Assembly (NCBI GenBank): GCA_019058315.1
Contig: JAHPZH010000006.1
Coordinates: forward strand, 64,001-128,000
From: Candidatus Helarchaeota archaeon
GTDB taxonomy: Archaea > Asgardarchaeota > Lokiarchaeia > Helarchaeales > RDOG01
DNA: 64,000 nt
Direction of reading: 5' to 3'
Both the position numbers and the translations under genes were made by a program. This document shows, piece after piece, positions 1 to 61,374 of this stretch (the stretch's first letter is position 1; every line of letters begins with the position of its first letter). The notes below the pieces were generated by a model. It was not told where the DNA came from. It worked only from the letters and a program-made list of their open reading frames with translations, and searched no databases.

Positions 1-925
1 AAATAATTTTTTTAGGAACATCAGGGACAGTTCCAACTGTTTCACGCAGTTTGCCTGCAATAATAATAAAAAGAGAAAATGATTTTTTGCTTTTTGATTG
101 CGGTGAAAAAAACTAATTAATTGTAGTTTTCACTAAGGCACACAACTTCAATTTAGGAAAGCAAAAATCAGTTTTTTTAAAATTAATAAGATTTTTCTTT
201 CACATTTACATGGCGATCATATTACTGGGTTACCTGGTCTAATTATGTCATTAGCTTTAGGTAAAAGAGAGAAAACTCTTACAATTTATGGACCTAATGG
301 GATTAAAGGATTTATAAATAAAGTTATTGATACAATGCATTTTGATTTAACTTATCCTTTAGAAATAGTTGAAATAGCTGGAGAAGAAAATTTTGAATTT
401 TTAAATTATAAAATTACTTGTTTTCCTTTAGAACATAGGATATTTACCTTAGGATATGTTATTGTAGAAAAACCAAAGGCAAAATTCGATGTTGAAAAGG
501 CGAAGTCATTAAAAATTCCAAAAGGTCCTTTATGGGGAAAATTGAAATCAGGTGAAAGTATTCATTTAAATAATGGGAGAGTTATCCAACCTTCCCAAGT
601 TTTAGGAAATATAAAACCTGGAAAAAAAATTTTATATTGCACAGATACTCGTCCTACAATTAAGACAAAAAATTTAAGCAAGAACGCAGATTTACTCATT
701 CATGATGGTATGTTTGAAGAGAATCTAAAAGAGTTCGCTACAATTGGAGGACATTCAACAGTAGTTGAAGCCGCAGAACTGGCTAAAGATTCGAAAGTAA
801 AAAAATTAATCTTATTCCATATAAGTTCTAGATATGAAAATAATAATTCTATTTTAGAACTTCAAGCAAAAAAAATTTTTCCTAATTCATTCATAGCTGA
901 AGATTTTATGAGAATTTTAGTTTAA
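1..925 (+). CDS. rnz: Ribonuclease Z, 5'-truncated by the window edge, intron-containing: join(<1..107,137..925)
   Basis: The frame from nt 3 reads [12 protein letters not shown]...LFDCGE. After removing 108-136 it continues GTQLQ...SHLHGDH and into ORF 245..925 (TDTRP, HST, HISSRY motifs). Confidence 0.95.
108..136 (+). other. 29-nt BHB intron in rnz mRNA
   Basis: Outer pairs TGC(99-101)/GCA(138-140), central helix GGTG(102-105)/CACT(131-134), bulges AA|A and AA|G, 7-bp intron stem AAAACTA/TAGTTTT. Removal restores DCGE-GTQ in frame. Confidence 0.9.
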
Positions 926-8217: not shown

Positions 8218-8325
8218 GGGCCGGTAGATCAGCCTGGTATGATCGCCACGCTTGCAACGTGGAGATTGAATATATTACAATTTATCAACCATATGTCCCG
8301 GGATCGAAGCCCGGCCGGTCCACCA
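8218..8325 (+). tRNA. tRNA-Ala(UGC) with a 30-nt intron at 45/46 (8265-8294)
   Basis: Cloverleaf with G3-U70 and encoded CCA. Helix GTGG/CCAT, bulges AG|A and AT|G; removal gives variable loop AGGTC. T-loop is ATCGAAG. Confidence 0.92.
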
Positions 8326-15398: not shown

Positions 15399-17550
15399 TT
15401 AAAAAAAATCGGCTTTTGGTATTTCAGCTTTTCTACCTTTTTTTATACGAATGTCTGAAATTATTTTTTGAGCGCTATCATAGGAAATAAATTCCCAATG
15501 AGAAAAAACTGTTTGCCAGAATGCTTGTCCTGCAGTTTTTGAACGAATATCAGTAGATAGATTAAATGATTCTTTAACTGGAATTAGACCAGTAATGTAT
15601 GAATAAGAATCTTTTTGTTCAATATTTAGAATTTTGCTTTTCCTTTGTAATAATAAAGCTGTAATAACTCCTATTAGATTTGTAGGAACTTGGATTTGAA
15701 TCTTATAAATTGGCTCAAAAATAGTAGGTTCTGATTTTAAAAAAGCGCTGTAAACCGCTCTTTTACCCATTAACATAATTTGAAGCGGATCGACTTCTAA
15801 AGTATTTTTATCAATTTTTAATAAATGGATATTTATTTGCAATCCTTTTATTGGTTCTTCGCATAAAGGTCCTGCATTTAGAGCCATTTTAATACCCTTT
15901 ATAATAATTTCTTTGATTTTATCATCAATTTCTTGGCTTAAATCATTAATAATTAGATTATTATTGTAATCTATTGCTAGAATCTTCTTATGTTTTAAAA
16001 TTTCTTTAATTCTTTCTTCGTTTATTGGTTCTACTGAAAGTTTGATTTGATTCAAATTATTTTGACTTAAAGTTGAAATTATTGGGCTCTTTATTTTAAT
16101 TCCTTCTCTGTAGACTACAATTGGATCGGACATTAATATGTCAATCCCAAAATCTTTTATTTCATTAGCAATGATTTCTAGATGTAATTGTCCGATTCCA
16201 GAAATCAAATATTCCCCTGTATCTTCATTAATATCGATTTTTATATCGGGATCGTTTATTTTTATTTTATTTAAAATATCTAGCATTTTAGGTAATTCCT
16301 TTGGATGTTTGGGTTCAATAGAAACTGTTATAACAGGATCTGATACATATTTGATATTTTCAAATGGGTCAATTATTTCTTTAAACTCACTATTAGTTAA
16401 TGTTTCTCCAACTATTGCCTCTGAGAGGCCTATAAAAGCTCCAATATTACCTGCTGTAAGAGAATTAACAATTTCTCTTTTATGTCCCATTGAAATGAAA
16501 ATTTTTAAAACTCGATTAATGTCTTTCGCAGTTAATAAATAGACTTCATCACCTGAATTAATGGTTCCAGAAAATATACGTCCTATTGATATTTTTCCTA
16601 CATGTTTGTCAAATAATATCTTATGAATACAAATAATTAATGGTCCATTTTCATTACATTTTTGCATATTTTGTGCTAAAGCTGAATTTAAATCGCCTTT
16701 CCAAATTTTTTTAATTCTATAAGTTTGTGCAATTTTAGGACTTGGCAAATGATTAATTATCATATTTAATATACATTTATCTAAAGGTAGAATTTCACTT
16801 AATATCTCAATTTTGTTTATTCCATTTTTATAATAATTAAAAATATTATCAAACTTTAGTTTCTTATTTTTCATGATATTTAATGTAAAACCCCAACTAG
16901 GATATAAAGCGCATCCAAATCCTACATTATTCATTTCTGGAATTATTTTCCATTTATCTTTAAATTCATTTTCAGCATAAAGTTCAATATAATCGTTAAA
17001 TTTATCTATAATATTTTGAAAATAATTTTGAATTTCATTAGAGTTTAATTTTAATTCTTTTATTAAACGATCAACTTTATTTATATACAGAATTGGTTTT
17101 ATACGTTCTTGCAAAGCTTGTTTTGTTACAATTTCTGTCTGAATTTGGCATCCTTCAACTGCATCTACAACTACAATGGCACCATCAATTGCTCTTAACG
17201 CTCTAGATACTCTGGCAGTTAAATCCACTTAGTCTATAAAAATAATTTTATTTTTATATATGACCTGGAGTATCTATCAGATTAATAATGAATCTCTCAT
17301 TAGCTATTTGATACAATAATGAAATATTTGCAGTCTTAACTGTAATTCCTCTTTTTTGTTCAATATCTAAATAATCCAGAGCCCGAAGAGAACCTGCTAA
17401 ATTTGAAGATATTACTTTCCCTAATGCTAAAAGGCTATCAGTTAAAGTAGTCTTTCCATGGTCTATATGCGCTATTATACCAATATTGCGTATGTTGTCC
17501 TTTTGTTTCATTGTTTCTAAAATTTCATTAATTTTTTTTGATTTTACCAT
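15399..17550 (-). CDS. Elongation factor 2 paralog (aEF-2p-like, no diphthamide His), intron-containing: complement(join(15399..17228,17260..17550)), 706 aa
   Basis: AHIDHGKTT, RGIT, DTPGH|VD, NKVD and domain III-V motifs. The two ORF-track pieces join in frame after removing 17229-17259. Confidence 0.92.
17229..17259 (-). other. 31-nt BHB intron in the EF-2 paralog mRNA
   Basis: Minus strand: outer pairs TCCA/TGGA, central helix GGTC/GACT, bulges AT|A and AA|G, 10-bp stem TATAAAAATA/TATTTTTATA. Confidence 0.9.
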
Positions 17551-61265: not shown

Positions 61266-61374
61266 TGGTGGGAAAGGTGAGATTTGAACTCACGATCCCG
61301 TGGTTTCTTTTTGATCCTTTACAATTTTCGGATATCCCAAGCCACGAATCATAGCCAAGCTAGACCACTTTCCC
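61266..61374 (-). tRNA. tRNA-Pro(UGG) with a 31-nt intron at 37/38 (61305-61335)
   Basis: GGGAAAG/CTTTCCC acceptor stem; CGTGG/CCACG anticodon stem; relaxed BHB. Confidence 0.9.

Follow-up and report, generated by a model that had tools for sequence, protein, structure and literature searches.

A predicted BHB intron within the RNase Z coding sequence of a Helarchaeota-like Asgard archaeon

The window analysed here is a stretch of 64,000 nt (G000:C6:64001-128000) from a genome assembly of 5.79 Mb, which comprises 12 contigs and has a G+C content of about 30%. Among named sequences, the nearest relative of the gene analysed here belongs to a 'Candidatus Helarchaeota archaeon', and a genome panel assigns the host to the Asgard phylum. 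It opens within rnz, the gene for RNase Z, whose start ATG lies 3 nt upstream of the window at C6:63997. Two stretches of RNase Z coding sequence, referred to below as exons 1 and 2, are separated by a short insert with the layout of a BHB intron. The locus comprises the following features.

1-107, plus strand: rnz exon 1, 37 codons, ending in ...LFDCGE (...GAT TGC GGT GAA)
108-136, plus strand: candidate BHB intron, 29 nt, with an in-frame TAA at 114-116
137-925, plus strand: rnz exon 2, 262 codons plus a stop codon at 923-925, beginning GGC ACA CAA (GTQLQF)
203-220, plus strand: HLHGDH (HxHxDH) zinc-binding motif, in exon 2 and upstream of its first in-frame start codon
245-925, plus strand: truncated 226-aa ORF called by gene callers (public protein P0001)

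Read in frame from exon 1, the insert (AAAAACTAATTAATTGTAGTTTTCACTAA) contributes the codons AAA AAC TAA, and it also shifts the frame. Excision of positions 108-136 yields a single RNase Z frame of 299 aa in which DCGE|GTQ is restored and HLHGDH is back in frame; the DCGE|GTQ motif is regained only if these positions are removed. The junction peptide of the spliced product spans LFDCGEGTQLQFR (DCGE|GTQ), and the 299-aa product aligns with eight uninterrupted orthologues without a gap across FDCGE|GTQ. Exon 2 alone scores above the cut-off of the TIGR02651 RNase_Z profile (302.8 vs 292.95 bits, profile positions 37-300 of 302), with RNase Z structures 1y44, 2fk6 and 2cbn as its best PDB matches. 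Its first in-frame ATG, GTG or TTG is at position 245, past HLHGDH, and 36 codons precede it. The public protein at this locus is a 226-aa fragment that begins beyond HLHGDH, and the entry of one relative is named 'ribonuclease Z, partial'. On the minus strand, positions 99-140 hold neither an ORF nor any other feature.

We read the BHB by hand according to the tRNA 37/38 geometry, in which the end of exon 1 pairs with the 3' end of the intron in a 4-bp helix, each strand of this helix is followed on its 3' side by a 3-nt bulge, and the cut falls after the second base of each bulge. Its elements are given below.

99-101/138-140, plus strand: outer helix, 3 bp (UGC/GCA), paired in 100% of five distinct sequences
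102-105/131-134, plus strand: central helix, 4 bp, GGUG (exon 1) with CACU (intron 3' end), including one G-U pair
106-108, plus strand: 5' bulge AA|A, with a predicted cut at 107|108
135-137, plus strand: 3' bulge AA|G, with a predicted cut at 136|137, invariant across all lineages
109-130, plus strand: inner hairpin, with a 7-bp stem at 109-115/124-130 (AAAACUA/UAGUUUU) and an 8-nt loop at 116-123

Positions 99-140 of the window satisfy the hBHBh' layout, with two 3-nt bulges on opposite strands, a 4-bp helix between them and helices on both sides; this is the motif ascribed to archaeal tRNA introns by Marck and Grosjean (2003, as cited in PMC5829648). Counting both strands, only 27 of the 11.6 million positions of the genome (2.3e-6) hold a 29-nt BHB with 4+3+7 pairs or more, and the chance of such a BHB in any of the three frame-restoring registers is about 7e-6. 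As a control, the scanner, which was built on this geometry, recovered the two tRNA introns that ARAGORN models cleanly, tRNA-Met i(41,19) and tRNA-Ile i(38,63), with identical boundaries. Folded without constraints, the sequence has an MFE of -10.6 kcal/mol (with a weak shuffle z-score of -1.5) in a structure where the A/U run slides and the 5' bulge is absorbed, and the BHB conformer, at -7.8 kcal/mol, is less stable than this fold by 2.8 kcal/mol. Thermodynamics by itself would have missed the rnz BHB. An Rfam gathering search of the window gave no match at 99-140, nor any match to 5S rRNA in the window as a whole.

The original prediction had described a 29-nt insert at 108-136 that splits DCGE^GTQ, adds an in-frame TAA and shifts the frame, and all of its coordinates are correct. 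It had also held that the predicted BHB cut sites are exactly the frame-restoring ones, which agrees with the 299-aa frame produced by joining at 107|108 and 136|137. Its expectation that annotators would call a truncated protein without HxHxDH is borne out by the two public entries, the 226-aa fragment and the 'partial' one of the relative.

Conservation and covariation of the insert

We searched exon 2 against 5.8 billion proteins. The five nearest protein clusters, at 70-100% identity, are all truncated ORFs (226, 226, 226, 206 and 160 aa), and the next matches, at 53% identity or less, are full-length RNase Z proteins of 300-307 aa. An insert of 29 or 30 nt also occupies this site in four more metagenomic lineages related to the host (70-91% protein identity); the contigs that bear it form four clusters besides the window's own and derive from six or more assemblies made independently (ENA, JGI, Logan and NCBI). 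The insert is 29 nt long in two lineages and 30 nt long in three, with the exon junction unchanged. By sequence, it is identical in L040 and L041, 29 nt long in L037, and 30 nt long in L034-L036, L038 and L039. Synteny of rnz with an Orc1/Cdc6-like neighbour is kept among the insert-bearing contigs. An independent study from 2025 has contigs in two runs that likewise bridge the insert, one without an indel and one with an extra T.

Among the other Asgard species genomes (400 searched), the rnz matches examined or listed are open frames of at least 288 aa, and uninterrupted rnz frames are found within the host's own family and order. The alignment with rnz of relatives that had been proposed at the outset as a check places the insert in four further lineages and not in the other Asgard matches examined or listed, and reveals one compensatory pair. 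Pattern scans of metagenome contigs (two patterns) and genome contigs (one pattern), aimed at the core of the intron or its border with the exon, returned zero loci; this reflects a limit of those collections and not absence, since the intron-bearing JGI contigs were reached through the protein that they encode.

All 14 BHB pairs are formed in each of the five distinct intron-bearing sequences. The compensatory change concerns pair 104/132. Four lineages have U-A here and L037 has C-G, its exon 1 codon having changed synonymously from GGU to GGC and the intron partner from A to G. At pair 102/134, L037 has G-C in place of G-U. As covariation, this amounts to one compensatory pair in five sequences, from one lineage, and it is not significant in a shuffle control (101/500). 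The parts of the insert also differ in their rate of change. The inner-stem columns are invariant (14/14), as against 7/59 fourfold degenerate sites in the same five sequences (p = 3e-10), and the loop columns, with one of eight invariant, are indistinguishable from neutral and drift as fast as fourfold sites. Within the BHB, the synonymous exon positions 101, 107 and 139 are invariant and position 104 co-varies with intron position 132; position 142, the first synonymous position beyond the BHB, varies.

In the three lineages with a 30-nt insert, the extra U makes the 5' side non-canonical, with either a 2-nt bulge or an unpaired U beside the central helix. A change in length between 29 and 30 nt with a constant junction fits a non-coding RNA that is cut at sites defined by its structure, and not recoding.

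Splicing genes and other interrupted reading frames

The host genome contains two matches to the EndA family (PF01974; 103 and 78 bits) and one to RtcB (PF01139; 582 bits). The EndA proteins of 184 and 201 aa are encoded at C12:5149-5703 and C1:331411-332016, respectively, and RtcB at C5:272272-273576. The 184-aa EndA protein carries the Tyr/His/Lys positions, and its nearest PDB chains are 3p1z_B, 3ajv_B and 2zyz_B, which we take to be crenarchaeal heterotetramer chains. Its 201-aa paralogue, 27% identical to it, has Pro aligned to the catalytic His. The putative alpha/beta-type pair fits an (alpha-beta)2 enzyme. An EndA of this kind with a broad-specificity L1 loop has been reported for Asgard archaea (PMC5829648), and (alpha-beta)2 EndA has been linked to cbf5 pre-mRNA splicing (Yoshinari 2006, as cited in PMC5829648).

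We also considered how common such interruptions are in this genome. A genome-wide screen for a BHB together with ORFs that merge on excision gave 172,810 minimal hits and 3,838 passes, compared with 3,039 passes at random positions; with passes this close to the random level, the screen was too noisy to serve as a count of mRNA introns and was set aside for that purpose. A stricter filter left 17 hits, and four of these appear genuine on both sides of the insert: rnz and the three listed below. The cbf5 and RNase HII genes of the host are uninterrupted.

17229-17259 of the window, minus strand: 31-nt BHB insert in the EF-2 gene, between DTPGH and VDL (aEF-2 profile 96|98)
C10:138945-138976 (L046:945-976), minus strand: 32-nt BHB insert in rrp41, inside the RNase_PH domain (profile positions 1-59 on one side and 64-129 on the other)
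C5:499169-499201 (L047:669-701), plus strand: 33-nt BHB insert in the gene of an HTH-CBS regulator, inside the HTH_3 domain

In the EF-2 insert, 4 bp form the outer helix and 10 bp the inner one, and its 5' site is immediately followed by an in-frame stop. The BHBs of rnz (102-137) and EF-2 (17229-17265) have a common core, GGUN/NACU, with a G-U first pair and the 3' bulge AA|G, and their intron hairpins are otherwise unrelated. The shared GGUN/NACU-AA|G core may point to a common origin or to a preferred insertion site, though chance could also account for it.

Because EF-2 is indispensable, the organism must be able to remove inserts of this type, which raises our confidence that the rnz insert is spliced. 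The inserts in EF-2 and rrp41 also suggest that the rnz intron is one case of a genome-wide phenomenon and not a dedicated feedback device. We think it probable, if less assured than the reading of the rnz insert itself, that BHB micro-introns lie across conserved motifs of several housekeeping genes (rnz, EF-2, rrp41, the HTH-CBS gene and possibly more), and that EndA and RtcB would here constitute an obligatory, general mRNA-splicing pathway.

Function of the gene and rival readings of the insert

In pairwise comparisons of the intron-bearing lineages, dN/dS is 0.08-0.33 for exon 1, apart from one near-identical pair with a value of 0.85 that derives from four changes, and 0.09-0.24 for exon 2, with dS of about 0.3-1.9. 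Both rnz exons are under purifying selection, with dN/dS of about 0.1-0.3. The 36 codons before the first start codon of exon 2 are conserved, so ribosomes must reach them by reading on from exon 1. In L040 and L041, which come from one sample and whose rnz is 91% identical to that of the window, codon 197 of exon 2 is an in-frame TAA instead of CTA (L040:1039-1043), with the length unchanged; this could be a real nonsense mutation, and thus decay, or a low-coverage assembly error. Four of the five lineages have no other defect in the sequence at hand, the contig of L039 stopping after exon 2 codon 234.

A tblastn search for a second true rnz, an intact copy of which had been named in the original prediction as evidence that would count against it, found none in the 94%-complete genome, only two RNase Z-like MBL paralogues of 249-258 aa that score below the cut-off.

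C5:1063242-1063991: RNase Z-like MBL paralogue, 187 bits against a cut-off of 293
C3:339336-340112: RNase Z-like MBL paralogue, 159 bits against the same cut-off

The alignment of either paralogue to the RNase Z profile is interrupted around position 150, presumably the site of the tRNA-binding flexible arm. They appear from these scores and breaks to be other MBL hydrolases, and not substitutes for RNase Z.

We consider it highly likely that positions 108-136 are a spliced BHB intron in the reading frame of the one orthologous RNase Z gene that the organism has. The original prediction had also proposed that the expression of RNase Z relies on the tRNA-splicing enzymes. The conserved insert, the purifying selection on both exons, the failure to find another true rnz in the genome and the alpha/beta EndA and RtcB genes all support this dependence as a probable one.

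From the sequence we infer both cleavage and ligation of the rnz pre-mRNA, in the following way. The pre-mRNA would fold so that GGUG at the end of exon 1 pairs with CACU at the end of the intron, flanked by the two 3-nt bulges, with the intron hairpin closing the central helix on the inside and a helix between exon 1 and exon 2 closing it on the outside. A heteromeric (alpha/beta) EndA would then cut after the second base of each bulge, at 107|108 and 136|137, and RtcB would ligate GGUGAA to GGCACA, restoring DCGE-GTQ and placing HxHxDH in frame. Without splicing, the mRNA would encode only a 39-aa peptide. The rnz intron probably arose in a narrow Helarchaeota-like Asgard clade, as one of several mRNA introns in the genome.

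The intron might in addition be regulatory, in that the efficiency of splicing would couple the supply of RNase Z to EndA/RtcB capacity in a feedback loop. This would be a functional addition to the intron explanation and not an alternative to it. RNase Z and EndA/RtcB share pre-tRNA substrates, the organism has many intron-containing tRNAs, and the intron has been retained over a dS of about 1, all of which would suit such a loop. However, similar inserts lie in EF-2, rrp41 and the HTH-CBS gene, which have no special tie to tRNA splicing; retention can be explained by the want of a mechanism for precise deletion; and relatives in the same order manage without the intron. We regard a regulatory role of this kind as unlikely.

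Splicing is not the only way in which a full-length protein could be obtained from an interrupted frame. Ribosomes might bypass 108-136 or shift frame across it, as in the hopping of phage T4 gene 60, and a stable hairpin with an in-frame stop right after the 'take-off' site does resemble bypass elements. Yet the landing site offers no codon matching GAA, and no single frameshift rule fits gaps of 29 and 30 nt between identical flanks. The conserved features are, moreover, those of a BHB, including the compensatory change in the 4-bp helix, and the same BHB geometry recurs in three other genes with unrelated insert sequences. Translational recoding is in our view very improbable.

We place in the same low range the reading of rnz as a pseudogene, inactivated by the 29-nt insertion and decaying, with its function taken over by a paralogue or dispensed with. 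The in-frame stop and frameshift, the two MBL paralogues and the extra stop in one related strain would be expected of such a gene, but dN/dS stays at 0.1-0.3 in both exons across synonymously saturated lineages, and four of the five lineages have no further defect that we can see. Conservation extends over the 36 codons of exon 2 that precede any start codon, HLHGDH included, the stems of the insert are invariant while its loop drifts, and the paralogues fall well under the RNase Z cut-offs.

A split gene, in which polypeptides from exons 1 and 2 are made separately and then assemble, has still less to commend it: callers do report an ORF of 39-47 aa and one of 226 aa, but with no ATG, GTG or TTG before exon 2 codon 37 the conserved GTQ...HLHGDH segment would stay untranslated. 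An assembly or sequencing artefact, for which nothing specific speaks beyond the metagenome-derived nature of the genome, is effectively refuted by the recurrence of the same insert in six or more independently made assemblies (ENA, JGI, Logan and NCBI) and also in a pair of runs from a different study.

Comparison with known introns

The cbf5 pre-mRNA of Crenarchaeota contains a BHB intron that is said to have been described by Watanabe in 2002 and by Yoshinari in 2006. Like the candidate rnz intron, it is a short BHB inside the coding sequence of an RNA-processing enzyme that leads to mis-annotation, it is lineage-restricted (with gain and loss in the case of cbf5), and it occurs in hosts with a heteromeric (alpha-beta)2 EndA, to which the putative alpha/beta-type pair of the present genome would correspond. 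The two differ in their hosts, which are Desulfurococcales and Sulfolobales for cbf5 and a Helarchaeota-like Asgard archaeon for rnz, and in the number of interrupted protein genes, of which the rnz host has several per genome, unlike the cbf5 case. Splicing of cbf5 has been shown experimentally, whereas that of rnz is deduced from sequence. With cbf5 uninterrupted in the present host, the rnz intron represents an independent gain. The rnz intron appears to work like the cbf5 intron; new are its host gene, the phylum and its place in a multi-gene set of one genome.

In the open literature that we searched, cbf5, which encodes a pseudouridine synthase, is the only coding sequence reported to carry a BHB intron (Yokobori 2009, PMC2738675), and PMC7714728 states that it was the sole case of this kind. 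In Haloferax volcanii, the HVO_1309 mRNA has a BHB intron in its 5' UTR (Schwarz 2020, PMC7714728). Introns in mRNA go unmentioned in a 2026 preprint on the tRNA introns of Asgard archaea, and our searches of open-access papers and bioRxiv turned up no account of a BHB intron in rnz or in any protein-coding gene of an Asgard archaeon. The HVO_1309 intron is, as we predict for that of rnz, a substrate of the archaeal splicing endonuclease within an mRNA; it lies in an untranslated leader and leaves the frame intact, whereas the rnz intron must be removed for any full protein to be made.

In the splicing of HAC1 and XBP1 mRNAs, a regulated stress switch, IRE1 recognises two stem-loops and acts together with a tRNA ligase or RtcB. 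The process proposed for rnz would likewise be spliceosome-independent and protein-catalysed, with a short intron, a change of frame and ligation by an enzyme of tRNA splicing. The endonuclease differs, being the IRE1 kinase-RNase acting on a motif of two stem-loops in one case and, by prediction, EndA acting on a BHB in the other.

If correct, the rnz intron would add a second independent host gene, in Asgard archaea, beyond the published cbf5 family, and the phenomenon would be broader than has been thought. If the inserts in EF-2, rrp41 and the HTH-CBS gene belong to one set with it, EndA and RtcB would act generally on mRNAs in an organism closely related to eukaryotes. The catalytically dead 226-aa fragments that gene callers predict would distort annotation, completeness estimates and pathway inference for genomes of this kind. 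The locus also offers a compact substrate of about 60 nt on which the biochemistry of Asgard EndA and RtcB can be tested.

With the BHB introns of tRNAs, the rnz intron shares its geometry and cut positions, its size class, which matches the 19-63 nt of the host's tRNA introns, and the expected use of EndA and RtcB. Its substrate is an mRNA, however, and its outer helix is built from coding exons and not, as in tRNA, from the anticodon stem; synonymous codon positions are therefore constrained by RNA structure.

Several observations concern the tRNA genes themselves. In its intron mode, which over-calls, ARAGORN flagged 16 of 40 tRNAs, and most multi-intron tRNAs are mis-modelled. Rfam matches four tRNAs in the window, and the length of two of them (8218-8322, plus strand; 61269-61374, minus strand), about 105 nt each, implies about 33 nt of intron. 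The strict BHB scanner did not pick up these introns, which are probably relaxed or non-canonical. Genome-wide, 40 tRNAs were detected, and several more are likely hidden by introns. A dense tRNA cluster occupies C3:627600-631800, where ARAGORN calls many long, intron-containing genes, probably with more than one intron each.
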